DNA of 45,913 nucleotides, from contig JBJKOX010000012.1 in the NCBI GenBank assembly GCA_046706965.1, positions 1 to 45,913 of the forward strand. Direction: 5' to 3'. The stretch is from Candidatus Pacearchaeota archaeon (GTDB lineage Archaea; Nanobdellota; Nanobdellia; Pacearchaeales; GW2011-AR1). The notes below the pieces were generated by a model. The model was not told the origin of the DNA. It worked only from the letters and a program-made list of their open reading frames with translations, and did not search any database. Both the position numbers and the translations under genes were made by a program. This document shows positions 2,928 to 33,497 of this stretch, piece after piece; position 1 is the stretch's first letter, and every line of letters starts with the position of its first letter.

Positions 2928-2964
2928 CTTAATAACTTAATAATTTACTAAGTAAGTTATTAAG
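2928..2964. promoter_or_regulatory. perfect 12-bp inverted repeat with a 13-nt spacer, candidate operator (alternatively a terminator hairpin)
   Basis: CTTAATAACTTA (2928-2939) and TAAGTTATTAAG (2953-2964) are exact reverse complements. The repeat lies 5 nt upstream of the TTTATATA box at 2970-2977 and about 50 nt upstream of the RHH-like ORF. Confidence 0.4.
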
Positions 2965-2969
2965 AAACA

Positions 2970-2977
2970 TTTATATA
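2970..2977 (+). promoter_or_regulatory. putative archaeal TATA box for the RHH / 616-aa / 2291-aa gene string
   Basis: TTTATATA lies about 36-43 nt upstream of the ATG at 3013, leaving room for a short leader that carries the GGGGTGG SD at 3003-3009. Confidence 0.35.
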
Positions 2978-3012
2978 ATCTATTTTTTTAATTTGTGCTG
3001 TAGGGGTGGTTT

Positions 3013-3147
3013 ATGAAAAAATATTTGCTTCTTATTGAAGATGAGGAATTATGGGAGAAGTTCAAGAAAAGTATAGAAAAAGATATTAATACAGAAATTA
3101 TCGAATTGGTGAAAAAGAAAGTAAAGGAGGGTAAAAATGGAAAGTAA
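3013..3147 (+). CDS. 44-aa ribbon-helix-helix (Arc/CopG-like) putative DNA-binding protein
   Basis: MKKYLLLIEDEELWEKFKKSIEKDINTEIIELVKKKVKEGKNGK is absent from the ORF track because it is under 60 aa. The pattern is a beta-strand (YLLLIE), helix (EELWEKFKKSI), a loop ending in N-T-E as in Arc/CopG, and a second helix. A GGGGTGG SD lies 4-10 nt upstream. The ORF overlaps the next gene by 11 nt. Confidence 0.45.
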   Translation: MKKYLLLIEDEELWEKFKKSIEKDINTEIIELVKKKVKEGKNGK

Positions 3148-4987
3148 GAAAGCTCAAGTTACTATTTTTATAATCATAGCAGTTGTGATTGTAGCTGCAG
3201 GGTTAATCTTTTTCCTTGTTCGTTTTAATACAAATAAAACTCAACAAGTTCCATCGAGCCTGCAACCTGTTTATAATTCATTTTTAACGTGCCTTCAGCA
3301 AGAGACCTCTATGGGTATTAATGTCTTGGAGAATCAGGGGGGCTATATTTACCTCCCTCCTTTTACTCCAGGGTCAAGTTACATGCCTTTCGGATCTCAG
3401 CTTAACTTTTTAGGAAATCCCATACCTTATTGGTATTACGTTTCTGGGAATAATATTCCGACCCAGCAAGTGCCTTCTATGAATGATATGGAATCACAAC
3501 TCGCAAAGTTCATAGACCAGGGCATTCAGAATTGTGATTTTCAAGGATACGGATCCCAAGGATTTGATATCTCTTTGGGATCTCCTAATGCCACTGTAAC
3601 TATTTCAGACAATAATGTTCAAGTTAATCTTAATGCAGATTTGAGTATTACCGGGAAAAATGCAACTACTATAATCAGTAGCCATAAAGTTACAGTGAAC
3701 TCTGAACTAGGTACACTTTACAATTCTGCTGTCAAGATTTATGATTACGAGCAAAAAAGCATGTTTCTTGAAAACTATAGTATCGATACACTTTGGTCCT
3801 ATGCTCCTGTAGATGGTGTGGACATAAGTTGTGCACCGAAAACATGGAATGCAAACAATGTTTTCTCGACATTGAGGACAGCAATAGCTGAGAATACAAA
3901 TACATTAGTCAATGGCGGTTCTAAAACTAATTATTTTAATGTAAAACTTCCTGTAAGTCAAGATGTCAGATTTTTGAATTCCCCTAACTGGTCAAGCAGT
4001 TATCAGGTTGATCCTACAGAAGGTAATAGCCCGGTAATGACCGCTGGCCCTGTAGGTAATCAACAAGGATTAGGAATTTTAGGATTTTGCTATGTTCCTT
4101 ATCACTTTGTTTATAGCATTAAATATCCCGTATTAGTCCAAGTCCTGTCTTCTGAAAATGCACAGGAAATTTTCCAGTTTCCGTTTGCAGTAGTCATAGA
4201 AAATAATAATCCAAGAGAACCATTAAACACCACTGCATTTAATTCTTCTCAAGGTTCTCAACTATGTTCAGCAGGAACTTCACCAATACAGGTAACTACT
4301 ACGAATGTGGCAGGAGATCCTCTTGCAGCTAATATTTCATACTCGTGTGCTGATGCCACCTGCGGGGTAGGGGAAACATCTTCAGGGGGGACTCTTAATG
4401 GTAACTTCCCTCAATGTGTAAATGGATATGTAATTGCTTCTGCACCAGGATATGAGGATGCAAAATATCTTCTTACAACAACAACACCAGGGAGTGTTAG
4501 CATTGCTCTTCAAAAACTTTATTCTGAAAACATAATGCTCCAGGTTGATGGGCAACCCTATGAAGGTCCGGCTACTATAAGTTTTAATTCTCCAGACTTA
4601 TCCACCACCATATCTTATCCCCAGCAAAAAACCATTCAGCTTGCCGAAGGACAGTATCAGATTCAGGTTAATATATACAAAAATACCTCCATTACACTTC
4701 CAGCTACGACATCACAACAATGCACAACCGTTCCACAATCTGGCGTTTTAGGGCTTCTTGGACTTACTCAAAAAAATTGTTTTACAGTAAATGTGCCTCA
4801 ACAAATAATTTCAAATGCCCTTTCAGGAGGAGGTAATCAGACAGAGTTCATATTGGGCTCTGAGCTTCAGGCCTCAAATACAATCACAATAAATGCATCA
4901 AGCCTCCCTGTTCCAAAAACTATTCAGGATGTTCAGACAAACAATCTCTTGATAGGGCAGCAAGGCCTAGGCATAACATTCCAATAA
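3137..4987 (+). CDS. 616-aa extracellular or cell-surface protein with a pilin-like (class III-like) N-terminal signal/anchor
   Basis: There is a strong AGGAGGG SD. The N-terminus MESKKA-QVTIFIIIAVVIVAAGLIFFLV has the basic-then-A/G-then-Q plus hydrophobic-helix layout of archaeal prepilin-type signals. The rest is S/T/N/Q/G/P-rich and K/E-poor, with many N-x-S/T sequons and paired cysteines. Confidence 0.75.
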   Translation: MESKKAQVTIFIIIAVVIVAAGLIFFLVRFNTNKTQQVPSSLQPVYNSFLTCLQQETSMGINVLENQGGYIYLPPFTPGSSYMPFGSQLNFLGNPIPYWYYVSGNNIPTQQVPSMNDMESQLAKFIDQGIQNCDFQGYGSQGFDISLGSPNATVTISDNNVQVNLNADLSITGKNATTIISSHKVTVNSELGTLYNSAVKIYDYEQKSMFLENYSIDTLWSYAPVDGVDISCAPKTWNANNVFSTLRTAIAENTNTLVNGGSKTNYFNVKLPVSQDVRFLNSPNWSSSYQVDPTEGNSPVMTAGPVGNQQGLGILGFCYVPYHFVYSIKYPVLVQVLSSENAQEIFQFPFAVVIENNNPREPLNTTAFNSSQGSQLCSAGTSPIQVTTTNVAGDPLAANISYSCADATCGVGETSSGGTLNGNFPQCVNGYVIASAPGYEDAKYLLTTTTPGSVSIALQKLYSENIMLQVDGQPYEGPATISFNSPDLSTTISYPQQKTIQLAEGQYQIQVNIYKNTSITLPATTSQQCTTVPQSGVLGLLGLTQKNCFTVNVPQQIISNALSGGGNQTEFILGSELQASNTITINASSLPVPKTIQDVQTNNLLIGQQGLGITFQ

Positions 4988-4988
4988 A

Positions 4989-7900
4989 ATGAAAATAACT
5001 TTTACAGAAGATAATAGAATAAAAAGGCAAGGAACAAATAAGAATATGAAAAATATATTCCTAATTTTAGGAACAATTTTTTTAATGTTTTTTTTAGTTT
5101 CTCAGGTTTCTGCAACCTATCAAACAACTTATAATCCTGCATTCTCCCCTACATCAACGAATTATAATGTTGGAAACATATTATCCATAATTGGAAATAA
5201 CCAGTGTTCTCCTTCACAAGATTTCATTTTACAGATTAATCCAACAGGGTGCGAGGACACTCCTGTTAGAAGTGATCTTCTTGCAGATCAGAATGTCCCT
5301 GTATTTTGCCCTGTTATTGCAACGAAAATAAATCCCCTCATCAATGTTAATGACATAAATTCAATAACCTTCACAGGAAATTTTCCTCCAGGGGTTGAAG
5401 GAGTAACTTTTGTTCCATACAGGGCTGCACTTTCTCCCGCAACCATAACTTCAACAGGCGTATCTCTTCAGACAGGGCTTACACAACAACAAATAGGGGG
5501 AAATATAGGTTATGTTGTAATAGTTTTAAAACAACAGGCAAATGAATCTGCAATTCCAAAATGGATAAACGGAACATTAACTGCTCACATGAATTATAAT
5601 ATTCAGAATGCATTTGGTGTAGGTCAAGTAAACTATTATCTTCCAGACACGACAGATCAGCAATGGGCACAGAATTATAACTCCTATAGTTTCTGGGGGG
5701 GACGTGGATTCCTTCGTGCTACAGGTATAACAGGCAATAGTGCTACGATTTCTGTTTATTCTTCAACTAATGTTCCAAATACACCCGGGAATCAGAAAGT
5801 CCTTGTTTCACAATCCACACTAAATGTGGGGCAAACCTCCTCAAGCATACCTATCTCAGGGTTTAGCTATTGTTTCGGAAATATGAACGTTAAACTTAAT
5901 GGTCTTCAAAATCCAGATACTATGGCGAAGCTTGATGTAAATGGGAATACCCTTGAACTTCCTGCCGGGCAATCTTTCATAAATGGGCAGTGCAAACTTA
6001 ACAGCGTTTCTGCTCAGGGGATAGTGAGTACGGCAAGCATTTCGTGCCAAACTGATACAGGAAATGTAAATTTACCTCCTCTCACTATAAGCCCACAAAT
6101 TAATCTTTCCGTTAATGGGGCCCCTTCAAAAGCATACAGCGTCGGAGACCTCCTTTCAGCAACGTCAGATCCTTCAGAATTCGTTTATTTGGGATATATC
6201 GGAAGAGATAGCAGTGGCAATCTTTTCATAGTTCCAGTAGTAAGTCCTGCACAAAGTTCTGCAGCATTTAAACAAACAACCATCTATAATGCTTTGCCTG
6301 CTGCTATGCAATATATGTCTTGGAATTCTGGGAGCAAATCTGAAAATTTACTCAAGTCTGTTCTCGGAACTCTTGCAGGCAGCCTAGGTTCAAGTACCAG
6401 TTGGCTTGTAGCTGGAACAGCCCCTCTAGGCACAATAACTCAAGCATCAAATGGAGGAAAAGGTACTTTCAATTCCTTTAATAATATAGCTGTACTCTCT
6501 GAAACAATAAATAACCTTTTCTCTAGCGGTAATGTGCAGGATATAGTAAATAATATTAATATAAATGGACTAGTTGGCCCACAAGACGTCCCTCTTTCAG
6601 GAGATTCCAAGACATATTATGATAATGCCATAAAGGATTATCAATCCGTAATTGCAAGTTACTCCCAGGCTTCTTATCCTGATGGAAACCCCGTAACTTT
6701 TGGAGAAGAGACTTTGGCTCATGAGGCACAATTCAGTTATGATATGGGACAGAAGGCAACAGCCCAACAGCTTTGCAAACAACTTTCAAATTCATATCCC
6801 GATTCTCAACTTATACCCAACTTTTGTTCAAATTTGGACGCTTTGGCCAGCCCAACTACATCTTCACAAAGTGTTAACATAAATGGACAAACTTATGATA
6901 TCTCTTTAGAAGATGTAATTCAGCCTACCCTTAGTGATTATGGTGTTAATATTACTATAAATCAACCAGGGCAACCGACTTTGTATGCTCAGCTATCCAA
7001 GAATCAGAGATATTATATTTCCAGTACAGACTACATTTCTCTTACGGGACTTACTGCTAACTCTGCGACGTTTGATATTAGCGGAGTAACACCCCCTGCA
7101 TTACAGCAATACACAATCGCTTCCTCAAGTATAACTGCACAATTAAATGGCCCATATCAAACTTTTGGTAAAAATAAATATACTCTTGCGGTTACAGGAA
7201 TAAATCTCCATCAACTAGCTAGTGTAACTGTGCAACCTAATATAAATTATATGAATACTAATGCATCGTTCCCTTTCAATATCGGTGTTGAGAAGAGAGC
7301 AATAAGCCTTACTCCAAATCAAACGAGAAGCTTAATGAATTCAACTACAGATAAAATCCAGAAATGGACTTCAATATCAAACCAGCTTGGAACTGTTGTG
7401 ACTGATATGCAAGACACATGCCAGGCTGTTGGTGCTTATTTAACTATAAAGAATTTCATTTCTGATTTAAGTGGAGAAGGGCTTGCACGGGCTAAGGTTA
7501 TGAGTGGGCCTAACGGGTGGGCACAGAAATGTGCTGATGCGGTGAAGAACAAAAAGGATCCTGATACTGGTGCTCCTGCAACTTATACTAGCGTTGATGC
7601 TTGTCTTATCGCACACTCTTCTGAAATAGATAATGCTGTTACAGTTTATCAGAATGCGATGAATTCTCAGGATCAAACATACAAAAATATTCAGTCACAA
7701 CCAGGTGTTTCGTCGAGTTCAAATTTCTTAGGACAAACTGTTGTGGATAACTCAAAGGTTTTGGCTGCGACGGTTACTTCTACTGCAACAAGTGCTGTTG
7801 CTTCAGAGGCAAGTAGCGCAGGACTCAGTACCATAAAAATCAAGGGACAAAATGTGCCTGTCAGTGAGATAATGAATGCAGTGTCTCCTACTAATATTGA

Positions 7901-10900
7901 TGTTACTACGTGGAGAGATATCCAGCTTGAATCAAGCCTTTTGGGCTCAAGTGATAAAACTGTAAGTCAAACTGCATTGAGCGCCTTGCAGTCTGATCTA
8001 GGAACCTGGTATGGGAACAATGAAGCGGCTACACAGGTTACGAAACAGGCTCAGAGCTTGGGAGTGGACCCTTCCAAGGTTACTCAGGTAGGTTCACCGA
8101 ATACTAAGACCGAACCTTATCTGGGGCTTACTTATAATGACATTCAAAATAAAGTTAGCTTGAGCGGCGTAGCTCCTAGTACCCCTATTGCAATTTTACA
8201 AAATAGAAACACTGGACTTTTATATTATGCAGTACTTGCTTCAGTTCAGGGGGGATATGGTATATCAAAAATTTATGATCAGACAGGATCTTTGGCATAT
8301 GATGCCTCTAAGACTACAACTCCCTCTAGTACTACAAGCGGAACACAAAAGAGCACCCCTAATAATAACCTACTTACAACCTTAGGACTAGAAGGAGTTG
8401 AGTTTAAAGTAAATCCTTACCAGAATCAAATTATCAATCCAGAAGTTTCCTATTATAATACTGGGCCTTATGCAGGGCTACCTGCGGTTATTCCTTTTGA
8501 CCCAAAAGATGGATGGTATGCCTACATACAGTCTGTTTTACCTACGGGCAGCAGCTCAAACTCAATAACTCCTTATGATAAATCTGGAAGAGTTTCGACT
8601 TTATACCTTTGCAATGTTGGCTCAGTTGGTATTGTTCAGGGTCCTTCAGGAGATTCATGTGTGCAGGAAAATCTTGCTACAGGCCAGGCATACACTAACT
8701 TTGGAGGACTTTCACAAGCTCAAACAAATCAGTATATACAGTGTGCAGTTAGTGCGGTTCAGCAAGCTTCCCAGAAATATAAATCAGGTGTGAGTTCGAT
8801 ATCAATAAGTACCTCTTGTGGAGGATCTGTATCTCTTAAAGTGGGAGCACCCTCTATCGGAACCCCTGCGATACAATGTGAAGATTTCATGTCCCCTTCA
8901 GACTGCAGTCTTCTTTTCAACGTTTGTGATCCTGTAGTTTGTCCTACAAGCAGGTGCAATCTTGGAGGGGCATATCCCGTATCAAATGTTGTCCAGTCAG
9001 GGATTATTGGAAGCGTCGCATTATGCTATCCTAATGCAAAGTGGCAAGGAGGTACTGACTATTTGCCTGTTTGTGTTACAGGGGTTAAGGCAGGACTTGA
9101 TGGGTATATAAGCATGCTGAAGTCCTTCAATTCGTGTTTGAATACAAGTTTACAGACAGGGCAAGTTGTGGGAATCTGTGACGAGATAAGCGCATTTTAC
9201 AAGTGCAATTTCTTCTGGAATGATGTTTATCCACTGGCAAAGCAGGGGGCTATTTCTGTTCTTGAGTCCTCACAGGGTGAACATACTTCAGGAGGAGGAG
9301 AATATCTTAATGTACAAAACGCTATATCTAACGCGAAGAGTGCTGCTAATTATTTCACACAAACTTATAGTGCACAGTCTTCCCAGGCATTCCAAGCTAG
9401 GAGTACACAGAGCCTTCAGGCAGATGTTTGCAGTCAATATGTTTCTGCGGTTGTGCCTGAAGCTAGTAGTATCATGAATTCTCTAAGTGCTCAAGCCTCC
9501 CCTCCACAATATTTCGGATTTTTCCAATCAACACCTTACACTACAGACACAAATCCCCCAATCTCGGAGTACAAAGTTTTTTATCACATTTATGCGGGAC
9601 AGTATCCCGCTTACTATGAGGTTTATCTGAAGGGTACTCAGGGTTCATATTATCAAGATACTGCACCTACCTATCAACTTGCTCAAGGTTATATTGCATC
9701 AGGACAATCGGTGGATCAAACTCCTGACTTCACCGCTCCTACTGGCTACAATCAACTTTGTATAAATGTAAATGGTCAAGAGGATTGCAACTTTAATGAG
9801 GTATCTACAAACTTCGCTGCAAATTATCTTGCTCAGGCATATACTGCTAATCAGGCATCTCAAAATGATATTACCACAACGGCCGGATGTAGTTCTACAA
9901 ATGGAATTGTAAGGGTTTGTGCAACTAATAGTCCTGGGCAAGGGACAGACCCTAATTATGGCACAACCAATGCGATATGGCAGCCTGTAGGATATTGTGA
10001 TACCCCCAATATGAAGTGCTGGCTTAATGAACAGAGTGTCACAAGTACTATAACGGATCAGAATCTGGCGCAAGGTGCTCTGCAAACAGCTACTGCAAAT
10101 GTCCAATCATACCTTTCTTCAAATTATATACATCCTGCAGACTTTTCAGGAATAGTCTCCGCAATACAATCTCTAAGCGATCCTTTAACAATTGTTAATA
10201 ATATAACTGCGACTCTTGCCAAGATTTATTATCCTAATGAAACAGGGTACCTTACACTTTTGAGGGGAGATACATATGCAATCCTTGCCGAGGACGCGCT
10301 TTTAGCTGCTAGGAGTGGTACATCTAGTTCCGTAACACCATGTGTTAATGTCACAACAGGCCCTGTAATGACTCTCCCTATTCCCTCAGGAATGACGTGG
10401 GGACAATATTGTACTAATGCAGGTAGCAATTACGCAAGTTGCACTCCCGCCACGTGTAGTGCAAATGAAGCAGGCACATCTACATTATGTGTTAATGTCA
10501 CAACAGGCCCCGCAATGACTCTCCCTATTCCTCCCGGAATGACTCAAGAACAATATTGTACTAATGCAGGTAGCAATTACGCAAGTTGCACTCCTGTCGC
10601 TTGCCCTGTGACAAATAATCAATTGACTCAAGAAACTTCCACTTCTGGTCAGTTTACTGCCTCTAACTCACTTAAGAGCGCTATAGCAAATTCAGATTAT
10701 TCTAATCTACAATACCCTCTACTTAATCTTAATAACATTTATTATCTTTATGTTGACGGGAATTGGTATTGGTCTACTGACAAAGACAGGTGGATAAGTT
10801 CAGATCTTTCAAGCCAGTTTTATGTTTCCGATAATACCCCTGTTCAGGCAATATCTACAACTACTTTAAATTTCAACCAACAATCTAGTTCTAACCAAGC

Positions 10901-11864
10901 GCTTATAAAATCTCTTGTGGGTGTTTCCTATGGAGGTGGCTTAAATCTACTTATAGGATTTGAAGAAAAGAATGGAGGTGGTTTTATTGGTATTGGTGGC
11001 TACCCTCTTTCAACAGAACATGTTTCCATGGATTCTAGTGGAGTCTTCAAGGTTAATATAATCTCCTCTACCTCTGCTCTTCAAGGCTACCTCTTTCAAT
11101 ATTCTAATGGACAGTGGATACTTCCTCAAGGAAATCAGGTTCCTGAAATTACTAATTTACTTAACTCTCTTGCAGGGAAATCTTTTTCAGAAGGCGCACA
11201 GATTCTCTTTTCAATTGACTCTGCAGGTGCGCCTAGCACTGCTACTTCTACCACTACCTCCGGAACCGGATCAACTACAGGAATTTCATGTACTACTCAA
11301 TCTAGTTGCCAAATAGCATTAGGTAATCAAATAATGAATATTGCACAACAGGTGGCAACAAAATATTCCATATCCGACGCTCAGGTCCAACAGGACACGG
11401 GTGTGAAAAGTTTTGCTTGCCTAGCTTTATTGGTCTCTAATCTTGAGAGTGGGATACAACAATGTGTAACTTATCAACAAAACGGAAACCCTTTATATTG
11501 CGAGGGTAATCCTGGTCAAGTATTGGGTGGAGATTCTACCCAAGGGGGGAGCTTCGGAGCCATGCAAGTAAATAAGGCTGCACAATCCAATGCTTTTACA
11601 AGTTCAAACCCAAATAATGCATATAATTTCAATTACAACGTGAATTATGCTCTCAACCTTTTAGCTGGCGATTACACCACAATACCTCGAACTTACGTAT
11701 GTAATTCTAAAACTTATAGTGGATGGGAGGCTGCATTGAGAAGTTATAATGGGTGGACGTCTTCTGCTGCAGGTTGCACATCAGGGAATATTAATTATGT
11801 AGAACAAGTTCTTGGGACAAACAACAAAAATCAGGTTAATGCTTTATTCCCCCAGTGTGCCTAA
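4989..11864 (+). CDS. giant (2,291 aa) secreted surface protein with a C-terminal lytic-transglycosylase (SLT-like) domain
   Basis: An uninterrupted 6.9-kb ORF starts 1 nt after the previous stop. The alternative start at 5046 gives MKNIFLILGTIFLMFFLVSQVSA-TYQ, a classic Sec signal peptide. The composition is S/T/N/Q/G-rich. There is a 10-Cys core, a tandem 49-aa Cys module, a T/S linker, and then the ES...GAMQVN...YNGW motifs. Confidence 0.9.
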   Translation: MKITFTEDNRIKRQGTNKNMKNIFLILGTIFLMFFLVSQVSATYQTTYNPAFSPTSTNYNVGNILSIIGNNQCSPSQDFILQINPTGCEDTPVRSDLLADQNVPVFCPVIATKINPLINVNDINSITFTGNFPPGVEGVTFVPYRAALSPATITSTGVSLQTGLTQQQIGGNIGYVVIVLKQQANESAIPKWINGTLTAHMNYNIQNAFGVGQVNYYLPDTTDQQWAQNYNSYSFWGGRGFLRATGITGNSATISVYSSTNVPNTPGNQKVLVSQSTLNVGQTSSSIPISGFSYCFGNMNVKLNGLQNPDTMAKLDVNGNTLELPAGQSFINGQCKLNSVSAQGIVSTASISCQTDTGNVNLPPLTISPQINLSVNGAPSKAYSVGDLLSATSDPSEFVYLGYIGRDSSGNLFIVPVVSPAQSSAAFKQTTIYNALPAAMQYMSWNSGSKSENLLKSVLGTLAGSLGSSTSWLVAGTAPLGTITQASNGGKGTFNSFNNIAVLSETINNLFSSGNVQDIVNNININGLVGPQDVPLSGDSKTYYDNAIKDYQSVIASYSQASYPDGNPVTFGEETLAHEAQFSYDMGQKATAQQLCKQLSNSYPDSQLIPNFCSNLDALASPTTSSQSVNINGQTYDISLEDVIQPTLSDYGVNITINQPGQPTLYAQLSKNQRYYISSTDYISLTGLTANSATFDISGVTPPALQQYTIASSSITAQLNGPYQTFGKNKYTLAVTGINLHQLASVTVQPNINYMNTNASFPFNIGVEKRAISLTPNQTRSLMNSTTDKIQKWTSISNQLGTVVTDMQDTCQAVGAYLTIKNFISDLSGEGLARAKVMSGPNGWAQKCADAVKNKKDPDTGAPATYTSVDACLIAHSSEIDNAVTVYQNAMNSQDQTYKNIQSQPGVSSSSNFLGQTVVDNSKVLAATVTSTATSAVASEASSAGLSTIKIKGQNVPVSEIMNAVSPTNIDVTTWRDIQLESSLLGSSDKTVSQTALSALQSDLGTWYGNNEAATQVTKQAQSLGVDPSKVTQVGSPNTKTEPYLGLTYNDIQNKVSLSGVAPSTPIAILQNRNTGLLYYAVLASVQGGYGISKIYDQTGSLAYDASKTTTPSSTTSGTQKSTPNNNLLTTLGLEGVEFKVNPYQNQIINPEVSYYNTGPYAGLPAVIPFDPKDGWYAYIQSVLPTGSSSNSITPYDKSGRVSTLYLCNVGSVGIVQGPSGDSCVQENLATGQAYTNFGGLSQAQTNQYIQCAVSAVQQASQKYKSGVSSISISTSCGGSVSLKVGAPSIGTPAIQCEDFMSPSDCSLLFNVCDPVVCPTSRCNLGGAYPVSNVVQSGIIGSVALCYPNAKWQGGTDYLPVCVTGVKAGLDGYISMLKSFNSCLNTSLQTGQVVGICDEISAFYKCNFFWNDVYPLAKQGAISVLESSQGEHTSGGGEYLNVQNAISNAKSAANYFTQTYSAQSSQAFQARSTQSLQADVCSQYVSAVVPEASSIMNSLSAQASPPQYFGFFQSTPYTTDTNPPISEYKVFYHIYAGQYPAYYEVYLKGTQGSYYQDTAPTYQLAQGYIASGQSVDQTPDFTAPTGYNQLCINVNGQEDCNFNEVSTNFAANYLAQAYTANQASQNDITTTAGCSSTNGIVRVCATNSPGQGTDPNYGTTNAIWQPVGYCDTPNMKCWLNEQSVTSTITDQNLAQGALQTATANVQSYLSSNYIHPADFSGIVSAIQSLSDPLTIVNNITATLAKIYYPNETGYLTLLRGDTYAILAEDALLAARSGTSSSVTPCVNVTTGPVMTLPIPSGMTWGQYCTNAGSNYASCTPATCSANEAGTSTLCVNVTTGPAMTLPIPPGMTQEQYCTNAGSNYASCTPVACPVTNNQLTQETSTSGQFTASNSLKSAIANSDYSNLQYPLLNLNNIYYLYVDGNWYWSTDKDRWISSDLSSQFYVSDNTPVQAISTTTLNFNQQSSSNQALIKSLVGVSYGGGLNLLIGFEEKNGGGFIGIGGYPLSTEHVSMDSSGVFKVNIISSTSALQGYLFQYSNGQWILPQGNQVPEITNLLNSLAGKSFSEGAQILFSIDSAGAPSTATSTTTSGTGSTTGISCTTQSSCQIALGNQIMNIAQQVATKYSISDAQVQQDTGVKSFACLALLVSNLESGIQQCVTYQQNGNPLYCEGNPGQVLGGDSTQGGSFGAMQVNKAAQSNAFTSSNPNNAYNFNYNVNYALNLLAGDYTTIPRTYVCNSKTYSGWEAALRSYNGWTSSAAGCTSGNINYVEQVLGTNNKNQVNALFPQCA
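10341..10594 (+). repeat. in-frame tandem duplication (147-bp period) encoding two 4-Cys modules
   Basis: Segments 10341-10447 and 10488-10594 are near-identical at the DNA level. They encode CVNVTTGPVMTLPIPSGMTWGQYCTNAGSNYASCTP and CVNVTTGPAMTLPIPPGMTQEQYCTNAGSNYASCTP. Confidence 0.9.
11380..11800 (+). other. SLT / family-1 lytic transglycosylase-like catalytic domain of the giant protein
   Basis: The motifs appear in canonical order: E-S (candidate catalytic Glu codon at 11445-11447, ...NLESGIQQC...), G-A-M-Q-V-N (11562 onward) and A-L-R-S-Y-N-G-W (about 11735-11757). A TSTTTSGTGSTTG linker precedes the domain. Confidence 0.7.
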
Positions 11865-11905: not shown

Positions 11906-11989
11906 GCGGAGATGCCGGAGTGGTCAAACGGAACAGGTTTAGGCCCTGTTGGCTTAGTGCCTACCTAGGTTCAAATCCTAGTCTCCGCA
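11906..11989 (+). tRNA. tRNA-Leu(UAG), long variable arm
   Basis: GCGGAGA TG CCG GAGTGGTCAAA CGG A ACAGG TTTAGGC CCTGT TGGCTTAGTGCCTAC CTAGG TTCAAAT CCTAG TCTCCGC A. All stems pair. Confidence 0.9.
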
Positions 11990-15072: not shown

Positions 15073-16764
15073 ATGAAAAGAGAGATGAGTGCCTTTGCTT
15101 TAGTTTTGGCGGCAGTTCTACTTTTTGCCTATTTATTCAATCTTAATCTAACTGGTTTTGCTGTCTATCAATCGGATCTCTCAGGAGGGGCCTATAGCGG
15201 GACTTTTTATAATGGGAGTGCAATAGTATTAAATTCAAGCGCCAATCTAACTTCAGGTAGTTATACTTCCTCAGTTTTAAACGCAGGGAATAAGTCCCTG
15301 TGGAATAATCTAACATGGGTGGGATCTGTGCCAAATGGTTCTTCATTATCTTTCCAAGTGACAACCTGTTCTGATTCAAATTGCTCTGGTGCTAGTTTTT
15401 CTAATGTTACAACGAACAATAATACAATTGACTTGTCTCCAATGAACTTAACTTCTCAATATCTCCAATACAAAGTCCTGTTTTCAAGAGAGAGCATTAA
15501 CATTACAAGTCCTTCTTTGGTGGGCGTATCTTATTATTATTCTACATTAAAACCTTCAACTTCCAATAATGAAACTTCAAATCAAACTAATTCCACAACT
15601 GAGACTGTTTTAAACACTTCCGCATCTATTATTGATCCTTCCGGAACACTTGATTCTCAAAGAGACATCTCTTTGAATTATATTGCATCAGGAACGAACA
15701 TTACCTGCTCTTATTCCATTCTTAACACATCAGGAATAGTTGTAGATAACACCACCCTTATAGGGTGCGGAAACCTAACTTTTGATCTCTCAAGCGACGG
15801 AACCTATAATCTTCATCTTTATGTGAACGGAACAGGAGGATTTGTTCAGAAGAGTTCTAAGTTTATTGTTGATACCTCATCAAATCAGAATCAACAGCAA
15901 ACACAGCAGAATACTACTCAGCAGCAACAAGTAAATACTACTCAGCAACAACAGCAGCAAAAGACCATCCAGACAATAACTGCCTTATCTGCTTCAGATA
16001 TCTCTTCTGGAAATTTTACCCCTGGTGAATCCGAAAACCTAACTTTTAATGTTAAGAATGTTGGGACTGCTCCTGTAAGTTCGTGTATTCTTGTATTTAA
16101 AGGAAATTATGCTTCGTGGATTTCGGCTCCTAAAGTTAATAAGAATTTAAGTCCAGGACAAACTGCATCATTCTCTTTTACAGTGAAAGTGCCCCTGAAT
16201 GTATCAGATGGATCTTATCTTGAGAGTGCTTCTGCATCATGTTTAGAAACTTCTGTTTCCAAGAACTTTAATATTAATGTTGAAAAACCAAAATTAAATG
16301 CGACCATTCTAAATTCACGTAGGACTAGTCTTGGTAATGTTAAGGTTTCTTATTCCTTATCTGAATTGTCAGGTCAGGACCAAAACGTTTCTATTTCCTT
16401 TGATATTTTGAATTCAAATAATACCAAAATAGGAAATGCTACGGATAAACAAGAGCTTCAAGCAAATTCCACTAAGACTTTTAGTCTTAACATCCCTATA
16501 AATTCTACTGCAGAAGGAAACATGAGTCTTTTAGGGGAATTTGATTCAAAAGTTTATTCTAGCAAAATTTCAGAGCCTATAACTTTAGGTGCACCAATAA
16601 GCGGCTTTGCAATATTAGAGAATATGGGTACCGGAAGTTATGCAGTTGTCGGGATTGTTGTTGTGGTCCTCCTTGCATTATTCTTTGGTATTAGAAGAGC
16701 TAAGAAAAAATCAAGGAAAAAACCTTCCGCTAACGAAAGAAATTCTGTGGAAAGCGAGAAATAG
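15073..16764 (+). CDS. cell-surface (S-layer-like) glycoprotein with an N-terminal signal and a C-terminal TM anchor
   Basis: The 563-aa protein has the signal MSAFALVLAAVLLFAYLF and the C-terminal anchor YAVVGIVVVVLLALFFGIRRAKKKSRKK. It contains dozens of N-x-S/T sequons, a Q-rich linker, and a CARDB-like segment (LTFNVKNVGTAPVSSC). Confidence 0.75.
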   Translation: MKREMSAFALVLAAVLLFAYLFNLNLTGFAVYQSDLSGGAYSGTFYNGSAIVLNSSANLTSGSYTSSVLNAGNKSLWNNLTWVGSVPNGSSLSFQVTTCSDSNCSGASFSNVTTNNNTIDLSPMNLTSQYLQYKVLFSRESINITSPSLVGVSYYYSTLKPSTSNNETSNQTNSTTETVLNTSASIIDPSGTLDSQRDISLNYIASGTNITCSYSILNTSGIVVDNTTLIGCGNLTFDLSSDGTYNLHLYVNGTGGFVQKSSKFIVDTSSNQNQQQTQQNTTQQQQVNTTQQQQQQKTIQTITALSASDISSGNFTPGESENLTFNVKNVGTAPVSSCILVFKGNYASWISAPKVNKNLSPGQTASFSFTVKVPLNVSDGSYLESASASCLETSVSKNFNINVEKPKLNATILNSRRTSLGNVKVSYSLSELSGQDQNVSISFDILNSNNTKIGNATDKQELQANSTKTFSLNIPINSTAEGNMSLLGEFDSKVYSSKISEPITLGAPISGFAILENMGTGSYAVVGIVVVVLLALFFGIRRAKKKSRKKPSANERNSVESEK

Positions 16765-20729: not shown

Positions 20730-23249
20730 ATGAATGTTAGAAACAAGAAAAAACAGGCTATTAACTTCAAAAAAATAGAGGAAAAATGGCAAAAGCAATG
20801 GGCTGATAAGAGAATCTTTGAAGTTAAGGAAGATAAAAGAAAAAAGAAATTTTATGTCCTTGCCATGTTCCCCTACCCTTCAGGTTCAAAGCTCCATATG
20901 GGACATGCATTCAACTATACTGTGGGGGATATTTATGCAAGATTCAAGAGGATGCAAGGTTTTAACGTTTTGTATCCTATAGGATACGACAGTTTTGGTT
21001 TACCTGCTGAAAATGCAGCTATAAATGAGAAAAAGCACCCCTCCGAAACTATAAAACTTGCTACTAATAACTATACTACTCAGTTAAAGAGATTTGGGTT
21101 GAGTTATGATTGGTCTAGGATGATTAGAACATCTGATCCTGATTATTATAAATGGAATCAATTCTTCTTTTTGAAATTTCTTGAAAAAGGACTTATGTAC
21201 AGGAAAAGAGCCCCTGTGAATTGGTGTCCTAGGTGCAATACTGTTCTTGCAAATGAACAGGTCCATAATGGTAAGTGTTGGCGTCATGAGGATACAAATG
21301 TTGAGATAAAACATCTTGAGCAATGGTTCATGAGGACTACAGATTATGCAGAAGAACTTTTAGATATGATTGATAAACTGGATTGGCCAGAGAGAATTAA
21401 AACTATGCAGAGGAATTGGATAGGAAAAAGCAAAGGTGCTGAGATTACTTTTGAAATTAATGGGCAACCCTGGAGTATTTTTACCACGCGCCCTGACACT
21501 ATATTTGGTGTTACGTTTATGGTGATTTCTGCACAACATGAGAGACTTTCAGAATTAGTAACTCCTGAACAGAAAAAGGCTGTTGAATCGTTCTTGAAAA
21601 AATTAAGAAGCGTATCTGAAAAAGAATTGGAGAGCATGGATAAAGAAGGGGTATTCACAGGAAGTTATGCTGTGAATCCTATTAATGGTGAAAGAATTCC
21701 TGTTTATGCAGGAAATTTTGTAGTGGCAGATTATGGTTCAGGTATAGTCATGGCTGTCCCTTCTCATGATCAGAGGGATTTTGAATTTGCAGAGAAATAT
21801 GATATTCCTATAAAGGTTGTTGTTGAACCTGAAGAATATGAGATCTATGAACGAAAGAATGCTTCTGGTGAACTTGAAATACCTAGGGCATACCCTGGAG
21901 AAGGGACTCTTGTAAATTCAGGTCAGTTTAATGGAATGACCACAACTGAGGCACGAAAGAAAATTGTAAGATTTTTAGAAAATAAAGGCCTAGCTCGACC
22001 AACTATACAATATAAAATGAGGGATTGGCTTATATCAAGACAAAGGTATTGGGGTACACCTATACCCATTATTTATTGTGATAATTGCGGGGTTGTCCCT
22101 GTTTTAGAGAAAAATCTTCCTGTTAAGCTTCCTGAAAAAGTGGGTTTTGGAAAAGGAAATCCTCTTGAAACTAATGAAAAATTCCTTAAATCGAAATGTC
22201 CAAAGTGCGGAGGGCAAGCAAGACGTGAAACAGATACAATGGACACCTTCTTTGATAGTAGTTGGTACTATATTAGATTTACCGACCCTCATAATGATAA
22301 AAAGCCTTTTGACTTAAAGAAGGAAGGCTATTGGATGCCTGTTGATCATTACATTGGTGGTGCTGAACATGCTACCATGCACCTGATTTATGCTAGGGCT
22401 TTTATGAAAGCCTTGCGTGACTTAGGATTTTTGGAACAAGATGAACCTTTTGTAAGATTATTCAATCAAGGAATGTTGCATGGAGAGGACGGATATGTTA
22501 TGAGTAAGTCAAGAGGAAATGGGGTATATCCTGATGTAATAAGTGACAAGTATGGTATAGACACTGCACGACTATTCCTTGTTTCTATAGCATCACCAGA
22601 TAAAGATATCCAGTGGAGTAGTAGCGGAATAGAAGGAAGTTTTAGATTTGTCAATAAGGTGATAAGTTATTTTGAGGACATAAAAATTTCTAAGGGTGCT
22701 AAGAGTAACGAGCGGATTGAACATTTTATGAATAAGGCGATAAAAGATATCACCGGGCAAGTAGAAAGAATGGAATATAATCTGGCGGTTATAAGGCTTA
22801 GAGAATTATTTTCTTCAATGCCTGACGAAACTGATAAAGCAACTCTTGAGAGTTTTCTAAAACTTCTTTCTCCTTTTTGTCCTCATATTGCAGAGGAACT
22901 TTGGTCAAAAATAGGAAATAAGGGCTTTATTGGACTTGCGGATTGGCCTTCTTATGATGAAAAAAAGATAAATAGCAAGTTTGATCTAGAAGATAAGGCC
23001 TTAGGGAAAGTTATAGGGGACGTTAATAATATTGTTAAACTTATTCGTGAAAAATCAGGAGATGTTAAGAATTTTTATCTTTATGTTATGCCTCAAGAGC
23101 TAGATTTTTATAAGAAAAATAAAACTTTGATTGAAAACAGGATTGGCCTTAAACTTGAAATATTCGCTGTAAATGACAAAAATAAGTATGACCCCGACAA
23201 TAAGGCTAAAAAGGCGAAACCAGGACGGCCGGGGATATATGTTGAGTAG
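20730..23249 (+). CDS. leuS: leucyl-tRNA synthetase, apparently bacterial-type
   Basis: The 839-aa protein has the HIGH-region motif PYPSGSKLHMGH and KMSKS as VMSKSRGN. It also has GYDSFGLPAENAAI, TTRPDTIFGVTFMVISAQH and AVPSHDQRDFEFAEKYDIPI, which I recognise as bacterial LeuRS/CP1 signatures. Confidence 0.95.
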   Translation: MNVRNKKKQAINFKKIEEKWQKQWADKRIFEVKEDKRKKKFYVLAMFPYPSGSKLHMGHAFNYTVGDIYARFKRMQGFNVLYPIGYDSFGLPAENAAINEKKHPSETIKLATNNYTTQLKRFGLSYDWSRMIRTSDPDYYKWNQFFFLKFLEKGLMYRKRAPVNWCPRCNTVLANEQVHNGKCWRHEDTNVEIKHLEQWFMRTTDYAEELLDMIDKLDWPERIKTMQRNWIGKSKGAEITFEINGQPWSIFTTRPDTIFGVTFMVISAQHERLSELVTPEQKKAVESFLKKLRSVSEKELESMDKEGVFTGSYAVNPINGERIPVYAGNFVVADYGSGIVMAVPSHDQRDFEFAEKYDIPIKVVVEPEEYEIYERKNASGELEIPRAYPGEGTLVNSGQFNGMTTTEARKKIVRFLENKGLARPTIQYKMRDWLISRQRYWGTPIPIIYCDNCGVVPVLEKNLPVKLPEKVGFGKGNPLETNEKFLKSKCPKCGGQARRETDTMDTFFDSSWYYIRFTDPHNDKKPFDLKKEGYWMPVDHYIGGAEHATMHLIYARAFMKALRDLGFLEQDEPFVRLFNQGMLHGEDGYVMSKSRGNGVYPDVISDKYGIDTARLFLVSIASPDKDIQWSSSGIEGSFRFVNKVISYFEDIKISKGAKSNERIEHFMNKAIKDITGQVERMEYNLAVIRLRELFSSMPDETDKATLESFLKLLSPFCPHIAEELWSKIGNKGFIGLADWPSYDEKKINSKFDLEDKALGKVIGDVNNIVKLIREKSGDVKNFYLYVMPQELDFYKKNKTLIENRIGLKLEIFAVNDKNKYDPDNKAKKAKPGRPGIYVE

Positions 23250-31250: not shown

Positions 31251-32384
31251 ATGACTAAGAAAAAAGAAGAAAAAAATATTTCTATAGAAAATTCTGGTGC
31301 TGCTGTATCTGAGAAACAAATGAATGAGGAAATGTCTAATTTGGATGAGGGCAAAAATGAAAGGGATTTCCTTGAAGTGCTAAAGATATTCTCTCCCGGG
31401 ACTGCTATAAGGACCTCTCTGGATGACATTTTACGTGCAGGTATGGGGGCACTTATCGTTATAGATAAAGAAGGCCTCTCTTCAATTATGGAAGGAGGAT
31501 TTAGAATAAATTCTAGGTTTAGCGCTCAAAAACTAGTTGAATTAGCTAAAATGGATGGGGCTATCGTTTTGTCTCAAGATCTTAAAAAAATACTATATGC
31601 CAACACCCTATTAACACCTAGTGCTAAGTTCCAAACTAAAGAAACAGGAACTAGGCATAAGGCTGCTGAAAGAACTGCAAGACAGTTTGGCACTATAGTT
31701 ATTGCGATATCTGAAAGGAAGAAAAAGATAACTCTTTTTTATAAAGATGAAAGCTATTTCCTTGAGGATACATCTGAGATTTTGAGGCGTGCAGCTGAGA
31801 CTCTTCAAGTACTGGAGAAACAAACAGATATGTTTAATGATCTTCTTTCTCATTTGAACATACTTGAAATTACAAACCTTACTACTATGAGTGATGTATG
31901 TAGTGTTCTTCAGACCTTAGAAATGATTAGGAGGATATCTGATATAGTCAAAAGGTATTTAATAGAACTAGGGAAAGAGGGGACTATTGTTAGTATGAGA
32001 TTGAAGGAACTTACGAGAAACCTTACTCGGGAGCGAGATAATATTCTTAAGGACTATTTTGGCAATCAATATATAGAGACTGATGAAATGTTGAAAAGTG
32101 TAAATTTTGATTTTTTACTAGAAACCTCAAACATATTACGCCTTGTTTTTGGAGAACTTCATGATGAAGCTATTGCCCCTCGGGGAGGGAGAATTCTAGG
32201 CAAGATGAACTTGCTTGAAAAAGATAGAGATTCTCTTCTAGAAACCTTTGGTACTCTAGATAAAATCTTCAGTGCAGATGTCAGTGAGCTTAAGAATGTT
32301 TTCAAGAATGAAAATCTTGTAAACTCTTTCCTGACAGAGATCAAAAGTCTTAAAGAGAAGATAATGATGGGTAAAAAGATATAG
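31251..32384 (+). CDS. disA: DisA-type diadenylate cyclase (DAC domain, helical linker and degenerate HhH tail)
   Basis: FSPGTAIRTSLDDILRAGMGALIVI is followed by DGA (31554-31562) and GTRHKAAERTA (RHK at 31653-31661). Both the length (377 aa) and the domain order match DisA. Confidence 0.8.
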   Translation: MTKKKEEKNISIENSGAAVSEKQMNEEMSNLDEGKNERDFLEVLKIFSPGTAIRTSLDDILRAGMGALIVIDKEGLSSIMEGGFRINSRFSAQKLVELAKMDGAIVLSQDLKKILYANTLLTPSAKFQTKETGTRHKAAERTARQFGTIVIAISERKKKITLFYKDESYFLEDTSEILRRAAETLQVLEKQTDMFNDLLSHLNILEITNLTTMSDVCSVLQTLEMIRRISDIVKRYLIELGKEGTIVSMRLKELTRNLTRERDNILKDYFGNQYIETDEMLKSVNFDFLLETSNILRLVFGELHDEAIAPRGGRILGKMNLLEKDRDSLLETFGTLDKIFSADVSELKNVFKNENLVNSFLTEIKSLKEKIMMGKKI

Positions 32385-32447: not shown

Positions 32448-33497
32448 ATGCTTACAGATAAACAAGTTTTGGAGATAAAGAAACATCTTGAGCGTGCTCA
32501 AAACCCTATTTTTTTCTTTGACAATGATCAGGATGGCCTTTGCTCCTTTCTTTTACTTCAAAGATATCTGGGAAGAGGTAAGGGCGTCCCAATCAAATCT
32601 TTTCCAGGGATGACTGCAGAATATTTTCGCCGCGTTCGAGAATTGCAGGCAGATTATATTTTCATTCTGGATAAACCTATGGTTTTTGATGATTTTTTTG
32701 AAGAAGCAAGAAAGGTTAACACCCCTATAGTTTGGATAGACCATCACCTTACAACCCAAAAAATACCTGATTACGTAAATTACTATAATCCTCTATCAAA
32801 CAAAAACAAAAGCGAAGAACCCGTTACCGCTTTATGCTATCAGGTAACTAGAAAGAAAGAAGATTTATGGATAGCCGTTGTGGGGTGCATTTCTGATAGG
32901 TTTGTTCCTTCTTTTTATAGAGAATTTGAAAAACAATACCCTGAACTTACAATAAATTCACAAGAAGCAACAGCCATCTATTATAAGTCCCTTATAGGGA
33001 AAATTGCGAAAATGTTTAGTTTCGGACTAAAGGATCGAACGACGAATGTTATCAATATGATTAGATTTTTAACTAAAGTAAAAAGTCCAGAAGATGTTCT
33101 TAACGAGAGTAGTAAAAATTATACTATGCATAAAAGATTTAATGACATCGAAAGTAAGTATCACAGACTTTTAAAAAAAGCAATCGGGCTAGAAAAAAAT
33201 AAGGATAAAATACTTTTTTTTCAATACGGGGGAGACTTAAGTATAAGCAGCGATCTTGCTAATGAATTGAGCTATCTTTTCCCCGAAAAACTCGTTGTTG
33301 TTGCTTATATAAGGGGCTCTCGGGCTAACATTTCTATTCGAGGTGAAAAGTCTAGAGATATTTTCTTAGAAGCCATTAAAGGCTTGGAGGATGCAACAGG
33401 AGGAGGTCATGAAGAAGCAGTTGGGGGGCGCATGAAGATAGAAGATATTGAAAAATTTCGTACCAATATAGAAAAAATCTCTAAGAAAAATGAATAG
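32448..33497 (+). CDS. DHH/DHHA1 family phosphoesterase (RecJ/NrnA-like)
   Basis: Motifs present are FFFDNDQDGLCS (DxDxDG), WIDHH (DHH at 32739-32747), GCISDRF and GGGHEEAVGG (GGGH at 33399-33410). Confidence 0.8.
   Translation: MLTDKQVLEIKKHLERAQNPIFFFDNDQDGLCSFLLLQRYLGRGKGVPIKSFPGMTAEYFRRVRELQADYIFILDKPMVFDDFFEEARKVNTPIVWIDHHLTTQKIPDYVNYYNPLSNKNKSEEPVTALCYQVTRKKEDLWIAVVGCISDRFVPSFYREFEKQYPELTINSQEATAIYYKSLIGKIAKMFSFGLKDRTTNVINMIRFLTKVKSPEDVLNESSKNYTMHKRFNDIESKYHRLLKKAIGLEKNKDKILFFQYGGDLSISSDLANELSYLFPEKLVVVAYIRGSRANISIRGEKSRDIFLEAIKGLEDATGGGHEEAVGGRMKIEDIEKFRTNIEKISKKNE

Follow-up and report, generated by a model that had tools for sequence, protein, structure and literature searches.

A conserved Pacearchaeota locus encoding a giant, predicted secreted protein with an apparently exchangeable transglycosylase head

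Why does an archaeon that has no murein of its own encode a secreted protein of 2,291 amino acids (aa) with a putative murein-cleaving domain at its end, and which part of this protein and of its neighborhood is the conserved one? We addressed these questions for a locus of a Candidatus Pacearchaeota archaeon (assembly GCA_046706965.1, contig JBJKOX010000012.1); the whole stretch of DNA analyzed, 45,913 nucleotides (nt) in length, is referred to as the window. Its archaeal origin is evident from the contig itself, which encodes TFIIB, S3Ae, S8e, TFIIE and a tRNA intron endonuclease. An initial annotation had drawn attention to three tightly packed genes on the plus strand, encoding a 44-aa protein, a 616-aa protein and the giant, and had interpreted them as a unit by which a small episymbiont breaches, or anchors to, a cell wall. 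What it had observed was confirmed, and its interpretation is partly supported. The conserved units of the locus are the ~1,750-aa body of the giant and the 616-aa partner; the locus is not defined by the transglycosylase head.

Body and heads of the giant protein

A word-indexed search with the full-length giant returned 82 homologues of 1,260–2,820 aa from metagenome-assembled genomes of Pacearchaeota and Nanoarchaeota. An exhaustive search with the Cys-rich core of the body (aa 1140–1770) yielded 1,037 representatives at 50% identity, 879 of them at E≤1e-30; the matches listed were giants of ~1,800–3,800 aa or their fragments, and neither a relative outside the giant family nor a remote fold link was found by this search. 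These similarities place the giant in a Pacearchaeota/Woesearchaeota family of about 1,000 representatives. In nearly all relatives, BLASTP homology to the window's giant spans residues ~20 to ~1767 and is followed by divergence. The body contains ~100 invariant columns, including 26 Cys, in an alignment of 37 sequences (the window's giant has 48 Cys), and the core shows 44–50% identity to the best representatives compared with ~35% over the whole body. No relatives of the body were detected in Pfam, NCBIfam, PHROG or PDB, even with a profile of the whole giant.

The initial annotation had pictured the giant as a very long stalk. The body lacks internal repeats, leaving such a stalk unproven, and the idea of a repetitive one finds no support either: the sole repeat is a single 49-aa duplication in the tail linker, which is recent and encodes two Cys-containing copies (CVNVTTGP.MTLPIP...). 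Export is indicated by the N-terminus. All homologues start with a basic stretch and a hydrophobic core, followed by S-A in the window and most relatives, and in the window Met20 (nt 5046), a second possible start, directly precedes the hydrophobic core. The export signals originally noted on both large proteins are conserved across their families. Beyond its signal, the giant has neither a hydrophobic segment nor a C-terminal anchor.

N-X-S/T sequons are rare in the giant, with 12 observed against 39.9±5.6 expected from its composition, and they fall below expectation in 59/60 homologous bodies (P0001–P0060), at a median of 0.385 of the expected number. The family of the 616-aa partner is less depleted, at a median of 0.57 of the expected number (median z −1.1); in the window, the partner is neutral (11 vs 9.7 expected).

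The C-terminal head had been assigned to the SLT type, and motifs, profile comparison and structural modeling all bear this assignment out. Its ES (2153–2154), GAMQ (2190–2193) and YNGW (2253–2256; SYNGW 2252–2256) motifs match the complete motif set of family-1 lytic transglycosylases (E-S, G-x-M-Q, Y-N-G); in the DNA, the catalytic Glu2153 is found at nt 11445–11447, GAMQ at 11556–11567 and YNG at 11745–11753. Glu2153, Gly2190, Gln2193, Tyr2253 and Gly2255 are invariant among 24 aligned related heads, Pfam-positive ones included (columns E59, G96, Q99, Y159 and G161), and the Met of GAMQ and the Asn of YNG are each conserved in at least 90% of them. Starting from the window head, phmmer reached Pfam-SLT-positive heads of relatives (P0045, 7.9e-11; P0067, 4.4e-8). 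A comparison by hhalign of 14 heads of the window's kind, here called type A, with nine canonical type B heads scored 99.7% (E 1.6e-25) and placed the type A catalytic Glu in register with the QES motif of the canonical heads.

The AlphaFold model of the head is confident (predicted local distance difference test score, pLDDT, 89.9; predicted template-modeling score, pTM, 0.89). All 50 of the 50 PDB matches listed by Foldseek are lytic transglycosylases or lysozymes (MltE best, E 0.066; template-modeling scores, TM, 0.37–0.46), and in BFVD the PRD1 transglycosylase comes first (E 5.4e-3, probability 1.0), followed mostly by proteins with LT/GEWL domains. The head profile compared with PDB sequences gave only lysozyme-superfamily chains among the 60 matches listed, with marginal E-values. 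The window's head carries extra N-terminal helices and a 37-residue spacer between ES and GAMQ, which contains two conserved Cys and forms a loop insertion. The head alone had no match in a PDB sequence search and none in the word-indexed homologue search, for which the full-length query was needed. Because the curated PF01464 model missed the head and the profile-profile comparison linked it to its paralogues, it is best called a divergent subfamily. We regard it as a genuine but divergent SLT/GEWL domain with predicted lytic transglycosylase activity.

Heads were counted in 51 complete species-level giants, in a wider set of 266 giants and in the 82 database homologues. SLT-like heads occur in 27 of the 51 (12 type A and 15 type B) and in 106 of the 266, of which the other 160 have none, so that their share is 40–53% across sets and the murein-cleaving head is not the defining part of the giant. 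Since the divergent type A accounts for 12 of the 27 SLT-like heads, Pfam/CAZy surveys undercount such enzymes. In the tails of the 51 giants, Pfam recognized SLT 17 times and VanY/M15, Amidase_2, NlpC/P60 and PT-HINT once each; the 82 homologues contain PF01464 in 13 cases, Amidase_3 in two, and M23 and VanY in one each. A second payload slot lies near body residue 680, where nine proteins carry an SLT domain and P0051 (2,715 aa) carries M23 at residues 687–789. P0034 (2,776 aa) is double-headed, with a type A SLT domain at 1741–1928 and VanY at 2595–2728.

In the window's giant, the internal slot is empty and the tail consists of an internally duplicated module, X, followed by the divergent SLT head. 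Module X is present in one to four copies in 116/266 giants, with or without SLT heads, and has no match in PDB or Pfam. The type of head was unlike that of the nearest relative in 23/52 comparisons, one of them between giants whose bodies are 73% identical; clustering of the tails by BLAST joined 93 of them into a single component and was uninformative. Taken together, the giant is best described as a conserved, non-repetitive body with two payload slots, in which, from species to species, different bacterial peptidoglycan hydrolases are gained, lost and exchanged. A further C-terminal module of ~60 aa (KYSDNK.F.D.L..DGILTE.E...G.G.F....DM.WLK.LLL.K), absent from the window's giant, was seen in 16/266 giants, including P0008, P0018, L047 and L080.

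The 616-aa partner, the promoter region and the 44-aa open reading frame

To place the locus in context, one genome per species was scanned; 352 genomes contained a relative, and 80 loci were retrieved. In each of the 78 loci with enough downstream sequence, the 616-aa gene is followed on its own strand by a giant-body homologue, in agreement with the synteny anticipated by the initial annotation. The two genes overlap by 4 nt in 37/78 loci and are 1 nt apart in 11/78 (48/78 together), which makes translational coupling of the 616-aa gene and the giant the rule. In the window, a single base (4988) separates the stop codon of the 616-aa gene from the ATG of the giant at 4989. Two apparent fusions of the genes (L045 and L070) were rejected, most likely being artifacts of an alignment that runs through the stop codon.

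The partner has more than 2,200 homologues of ~610 aa with 50–67% identity, and the mean column identity is 64% in an alignment of 25 sequences. Its gene is preceded by the Shine-Dalgarno sequence AAGGAGGGT (3123–3131). The N-terminal signal, MESKKA/QVTIFIIIAVVIVAAGLIFFL (nt 3137–3223), follows the archaeal class III (prepilin-type) pattern, with hydrophobic windows from residues 3–15 onward; the family consensus is KRG/QVTIFIIIA (KKA/Q in the window), in which Q7 and F11 are invariant. The N-terminal helix is the only hydrophobic one. Pfam, NCBIfam and PHROGs returned nothing informative for this protein, and the family profile gave no credible match to PDB sequences. The model check proposed by the initial annotation, so informative for the head, was of little help here: the AlphaFold model of the partner is poor (pLDDT 59) and shows helix 3–29, a small alpha/beta domain and beta-sandwiches at 380–590, leaving the most conserved segment, 209–374, unmodeled. 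Foldseek matched it to Gram-positive pilins, SlaB (8qox_B) and teneurin. We do not rely on these matches because the model has low confidence and the sandwiches are generic.

Upstream of these genes, the TATA box (TTTATATA, 2970–2977) and the perfect inverted repeat pointed out initially are present, as are the reported gene overlap and spacing. When the intergenic region was shuffled, 12-nt arms arose in 3/2,000 cases, and 1/777 windows of equal size in the contig contain them. Conservation between species concerns not the 12-nt inverted repeat itself but an 11-nt palindrome, TTACTAAGTAA (2945–2955), located in its loop and right arm. The motif TTACTNAGTAA occurs once in the window (0.09 expected) and 25 times in 1.26 Mb of related loci. 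Every copy belongs to a locus bearing the 44-aa open reading frame (ORF), 24/25 of them no more than 130 nt upstream of it, and there are zero copies in 766 kb of loci without this ORF. A nearly invariant promoter, AAGAAANNTTTAWATA, was likewise found in ORF-bearing loci (26/30 matches, 37–66 nt before the ORF start) and in 0/47 loci without the ORF. In 22/30 ORF-bearing cases, the TTACTNAGTAA palindrome lies 17–33 nt upstream of this promoter. The 47 loci without the ORF (e.g., L012, L031, L044 and L063) have another conserved promoter, CAATAAANTTTATATA, with the ATG of the 616-aa gene ~27 nt downstream of it, which suggests leaderless transcripts.

The 44-aa ORF has its own Shine-Dalgarno sequence (GGGGTGG, 3003–3009), overlaps the 616-aa gene by 11 nt (3137–3147) and is present in 29/76 loci (38%). 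Among 19 orthologues, 17 residues are invariant (MKKYLLLIEDE..W..FK..D.N.E). The initial annotation had listed its product as a ribbon-helix-helix (RHH) protein as if this had been observed; it is a label. Pfam gave no RHH match and only weak, unrelated ones for the 19 orthologues, and the family profile produced no RHH match, nor any credible match at all, among PDB sequences. An RHH fold is therefore unproven, and the residue pattern KKYLLLI / EDEKLWEKFKESI / NTEIIELIKKK no more than suggests it. The most economical reading of the distribution is that the 44-aa protein and the TTACTNAGTAA operator form a putative autoregulatory cassette inserted in one part of the family. As to the earlier idea of a dedicated small regulator, the ORF co-occurs strictly with a palindromic operator, which is a correlation, but it is confined to a minority of loci and its product has no sequence match to any RHH family.

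In one locus without the 44-aa ORF (L016), a reading frame ~100 nt upstream of the 616-aa gene ends in ...KSHIIEEAIKLLKEK. It resembles the C-terminus of a canonical CopG-type RHH protein and may represent a different small regulator at the equivalent position.

Layout and neighborhood of the locus

The features of the locus are summarized in Table 1. ARAGORN confirmed that it is bracketed by tRNA genes, as initially noted, and these are conserved boundaries: tRNA-Val(GAC) lies upstream of the module in 20/28 and tRNA-Leu(TAG) after the giant in 16/28 related loci. Between tRNA-Val and the promoter is a 69-aa ORF with a tblastn homologue upstream of the module, on the same strand, in 64/76 loci. 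It is part of the conserved neighborhood. Lying upstream of the promoter, it probably belongs to a separate transcript; Pfam, NCBIfam and PHROGs gave no informative family match. A scan for bacterial promoters and terminators was set aside because the host is archaeal.

Table 1. Features of the locus in window coordinates
Feature	Position (nt)	Strand	Basis and remarks
tRNA-Val(GAC)	2558–2629	−	ARAGORN; upstream boundary of the conserved synteny block
Small membrane protein, 69 aa, two hydrophobic helices	2685–2894	+	ORF list; overlooked by the initial annotation
Operator region	2928–2964		Perfect 12-nt inverted repeat, CTTAATAACTTA (2928–2939) and TAAGTTATTAAG (2953–2964)
Core promoter AAGAAACATTTATATA: stretch resembling a B recognition element, plus TATA box	2962–2977	+	Sequence
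Conserved small protein, 44 aa, putative DNA-binding autoregulator	3013–3147	+	RHH-like by residue pattern only
Partner, 616 aa: class III (prepilin-type) signal followed by a large extracellular part with beta-sandwich domains at its end	3137–4987	+	ORF; AlphaFold
Secreted giant, 2,291 aa	4989–11864	+	ORF; homologues
Sec-type signal peptide MKNIFLILGTIFLMFFLVSQVSA, aa 20–42	5046–5114	+	Sole transmembrane-like hydrophobic windows in the giant
Conserved body, aa 43–1767	5115–10289	+	BLASTP coverage across homologues
Cys-rich core, aa 1140–1770, most conserved part of the body	8406–10298	+	CDPxxCPxSRC invariant; G/I-rich hydrophobic VVQSGIIGSVALC
Tandem duplication in the tail linker, 147 nt (49 aa)	10335–10456 / 10482–10603	+	87% DNA identity
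Tail module X, aa 1915–2088	10731–11252	+	Internally duplicated ~90-aa unit Y.Y...W.WS ... L.GK.Y.EG
Predicted lytic transglycosylase head, aa 2097–2290, divergent type A SLT/GEWL domain	11277–11858	+	Motifs, hhalign, AlphaFold, Foldseek
Oligo-T run 3′ of the giant's stop codon	11874–11880	+	Sequence only; putative archaeal terminator
tRNA-Leu(TAG)	11906–11989	+	ARAGORN; downstream boundary of the conserved synteny block

Both large proteins are rich in S, T, N, Q and G (45% in the giant, 44% in the 616-aa protein) and poor in K and E (5.2% and 6.1%, compared with 17.6% in the other ORFs pooled). The initial annotation was right about this composition but not about its being unlike the rest of the window: an ORF at 15073–16764 (+; 563 aa) has the same make-up, with 8.0% K+E. 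This ORF also has a signal-peptide-like hydrophobic N-terminus and a weak NPCBM_assoc/NEW3 match, and probably encodes another surface protein. The G+C content is 0.40–0.42 over the giant and ~0.35 in the contig (~35%). At third codon positions, it is 0.285 in the two large genes and equal to that of the neighboring genes, so that the rise over the giant is an effect of amino-acid composition. With third positions like those of the neighbors and with conserved flanks, an origin by horizontal transfer or as an island is rejected; the locus is an old, vertically inherited core-genome operon conserved across the clade.

Some further observations concern other parts of the window and of the related loci. 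A TTG-initiated ORF of 135 aa antisense within the giant gene (9699–10106, −) is most likely spurious. The leucyl-tRNA synthetase (LeuRS) encoded at 20730–23249 (+) matches PF13603, the LeuRS editing-domain model, at 1.9e-63. This arrangement is of the bacterial type, and the archaeon would accordingly possess a LeuRS of that type. A DisA-type diadenylate cyclase (DAC and DisA-linker; 31251–32384, +) lies beside a DHH/DHHA1 phosphoesterase (32448–33497, +), and the two may be a pair for cyclic-di-AMP synthesis and degradation. In two related loci, ARAGORN called a “tRNA-Pyl(cta)” of 92–94 nt beside tRNA-Cys (L056, 21463–21556; L069, 21208–21299). Several other loci have tRNA-Arg(tct) at this position, and the calls are probably miscalled intron-bearing tRNAs.

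Proposed function, alternatives and known systems

What could such a locus do? We hold it to be fairly probable that it is a clade-wide surface operon whose giant, anchored by its partner, carries a murein-cutting head and whose regulator is the 44-aa protein. The promoter at 2962–2977 would drive all three genes as an operon, and translational coupling would ensure that the 616-aa protein is made in step with the giant. Through its N-terminal helix, inserted in the membrane or in a pilus-like fiber, the 616-aa protein would hold the giant at the cell surface; this role is suggested because the giant has no anchor itself. The head would then cut glycan strands in the murein of a bacterial partner or prey at the contact site, giving access to it or releasing wall fragments. 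Where the 44-aa protein is present, in 38% of lineages, it would bind TTACTNAGTAA just upstream of the TATA box and control the operon. Together with the 11-nt operator, it represents a simple archaeal regulatory pair that is open to testing.

Several points weigh against this picture. There is no experimental work on any member of the giant family. The Pfam SLT model misses the window head (giant, E≤1; last 251 aa, E≤0.1), and the structural matches of the head, consistent as they are, are numerically weak. The 616-aa protein is poorly modeled, and among the window ORFs scanned there is neither a prepilin peptidase (Peptidase_A24) nor a pilus ATPase. RHH homology of the 44-aa protein is not detectable by Pfam or by the PDB profile search, and the link between its ORF and the operator could partly reflect the shared ancestry of one clade. 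Finally, about half of the giants have no recognizable wall hydrolase, from which it follows that the core function of body and partner is not murein cleavage. On the other hand, none of the outcomes that the initial annotation had named as fatal to its idea occurred: the head resembles the lysozyme/SLT fold, Glu2153 is conserved, the 616-aa gene and the giant are syntenic in relatives, and both proteins carry export signals.

Bacterial murein is the likely target, since the heads attack bonds found only there, which favors bacterial partners or prey. The initial annotation had also considered a methanogen host with a pseudomurein wall. Known cultivated DPANN archaea do have archaeal hosts (PMC11291902). 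The sister giants bear MurNAc-L-Ala amidase and D-Ala-D-Ala carboxypeptidase heads, for which pseudomurein offers no substrate. A lytic transglycosylase, in turn, requires the free C6-OH of MurNAc to form the 1,6-anhydro ring. Pseudomurein has no MurNAc but N-acetyl-L-talosaminuronic acid, its bonds are beta(1-3) and its amino acids are all of the L form (PMC10117817), a chemistry unsuited to the head, so that both lines of evidence make this target highly improbable.

Two other functions would fit parts of the evidence. The giant could be the main outer-surface lattice protein of an S-layer-like pair, with the 616-aa protein as a membrane stalk in the manner of SlaA/SlaB and the hydrolases as occasional add-ons. 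A tightly coupled, clade-wide two-gene module at a single locus, its conserved near-consensus TATA promoter and an S-layer-like amino-acid composition agree with this, as do an anchorless giant and a partner with a membrane helix, tandem beta-sandwiches and SlaB among its Foldseek matches. The SlaB match, however, is a generic beta-sandwich match with a TM-score of only 0.12, obtained with a model of low confidence, and the partner's anchor is N-terminal and pilin-like instead of a C-terminal transmembrane segment. A high number of Cys and a highly conserved core, both found in the giant, are unusual for S-layer proteins. The strong depletion of sequons is unlike archaeal S-layer glycoproteins and argues against a heavily N-glycosylated one, and we consider such a lattice unlikely. 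A carrier of enzymes, either released or tethered, is in our view quite unlikely; it would lyse nearby bacteria, or supply an auxotrophic archaeon with harvested pieces of murein (amino sugars, amino acids), without stable host contact. It would explain why the heads span all major murein bond classes (glycan, MurNAc-L-Ala, D-Ala-D-Ala and cross-bridge) and why double-headed giants such as P0034 exist; the conserved N-terminus, variable C-terminus and single PT-HINT domain resemble polymorphic toxins, and the killing of bacteria by archaeal wall hydrolases is on record, with homologues prominent in Nanoarchaeota (PMC12352652). But a hydrolase needs neither a conserved 1,750-aa body nor an obligatory partner, hydrolases are absent from about half of the family, and no genes for muropeptide transport or catabolism adjoin the locus among the window ORFs scanned.

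The tRNA genes on both flanks, the raised G+C content over the giant and the phage virion-associated transglycosylases and tape-measure proteins among the nearest structural matches of the head might also point to a mobile or virus-derived cassette, for example a tail or tape-measure-like protein carrying a lysin that entered between the two tRNA genes. We regard this as extremely improbable: most related species have the module between these same tRNA genes, the G+C content at third codon positions equals that of the neighbors, and the rise stems from amino-acid composition. There are zero PHROG matches, the scanned window ORFs are housekeeping genes or unannotated and include no integrase or virus-like protein, and the giant's beta-rich, S/T/N-rich composition is unlike a helical tape measure.

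Extending the preferred reading, the partner-anchored surface giant with its murein-cutting head, we tentatively raise the possibility that the 616-aa protein and the giant constitute a clade-defining host-contact machine. Here, the novel Cys-rich body would perform the conserved task, for example docking or gaining access to the membrane, and the two slots would be reloaded in the course of evolution with different hydrolases that match bacterial hosts or prey. If this were true, hundreds of Pacearchaeota and Woesearchaeota species would live on Bacteria and not on Archaea, by a polymorphic-effector logic not previously described in archaea. None of these very abundant lineages has been cultivated, and the locus offers a concrete handle on the question of their hosts. 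Being conserved and translationally coupled, the module can be recognized in genomes even without an annotated transglycosylase, and correlations could be sought between the type of head and the bacteria found alongside.

According to the initial annotation, no characterized system has this architecture. This holds for experimental work; the family and the hypothesis, however, are published. Castelle et al. (2021; PMC8204110) described fam00969, a family of large extracellular murein-transglycosylase proteins specific to Pacearchaeota and Woesearchaeota, and proposed extracellular attachment to, or degradation of, bacterial walls; that paper cites earlier sightings (Rinke 2013; Castelle 2015). 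Vigneron et al. (2022; PMC9723730) and an mBio study of 2024 (PMC10936187) made the same inference, and Strock et al. (2025; PMC12352652) found wall-hydrolase homologues to be prominent in Nanoarchaeota. The window's giant fits this giant lytic transglycosylase family, being larger than 1,800 aa, secreted, restricted to Pacearchaeota/Woesearchaeota and equipped with a transglycosylase domain. We infer that the two families are the same, matched by the published description rather than sequence by sequence; they share lineage, size class (up to ~3,000 aa), extracellular site, transglycosylase and proposed role. The central idea, that these archaea possess a giant surface protein for cutting murein, is thus already published, and our contribution is a refinement, not a discovery: it adds the anatomy of the operon and the picture of modular payloads, and draws attention away from the transglycosylase and toward the conserved body with its partner. 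The fam00969 papers define the family by its transglycosylase, which our comparison shows to be one of several exchangeable heads on a conserved body. They are complemented by the obligatory 616-aa partner, the second payload slot, the regulator cassette and a head subtype undetected by Pfam SLT. The partner gene, the payload slots, the exchange of heads and the regulator cassette are not described in the literature searched, whose coverage is incomplete.

The head shares its motifs and an all-alpha, lysozyme-like fold with family-1 lytic transglycosylases and GH23 enzymes (E. coli MltE, Slt70, goose-type lysozyme and PRD1 P7), from which it differs by the 37-residue two-Cys loop, extra N-terminal helices, modest TM-scores, the lack of a Pfam match and its fusion to an archaeal protein of 2,100 aa. 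As a whole, the giant resembles polymorphic toxins and phage virion-associated hydrolases in that a large N-terminal carrier is conserved while the enzymes at the C-terminus are rapidly exchanged; several hydrolase classes are interchangeable, and one relative carries PT-HINT. Unlike these, it is encoded at a chromosomal core locus of an archaeon, has an internal slot in addition to the C-terminal one and lacks a secretion-system or virion context. Its downstream neighbor is usually tRNA-Leu, and no immunity genes are expected beside it because the producer has no murein. Hamm et al. (PNAS, 2019) reportedly described the SPEARE proteins of Nanohaloarchaeota, giant secreted proteins said to contact the host through fused enzymatic domains; these are said to be protease, adhesion and nuclease domains, and the hosts archaeal. 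None of our searches revealed a sequence relationship between SPEARE and the window's giant. SlaA/SlaB of Sulfolobales, finally, likewise pair a very large secreted protein with a smaller beta-sandwich protein anchored in the membrane, and their genes lie side by side. The order of the genes and the polarity of the anchor are different, the window's giant is depleted in sequons instead of having them in abundance, and no homology between the two pairs was found.

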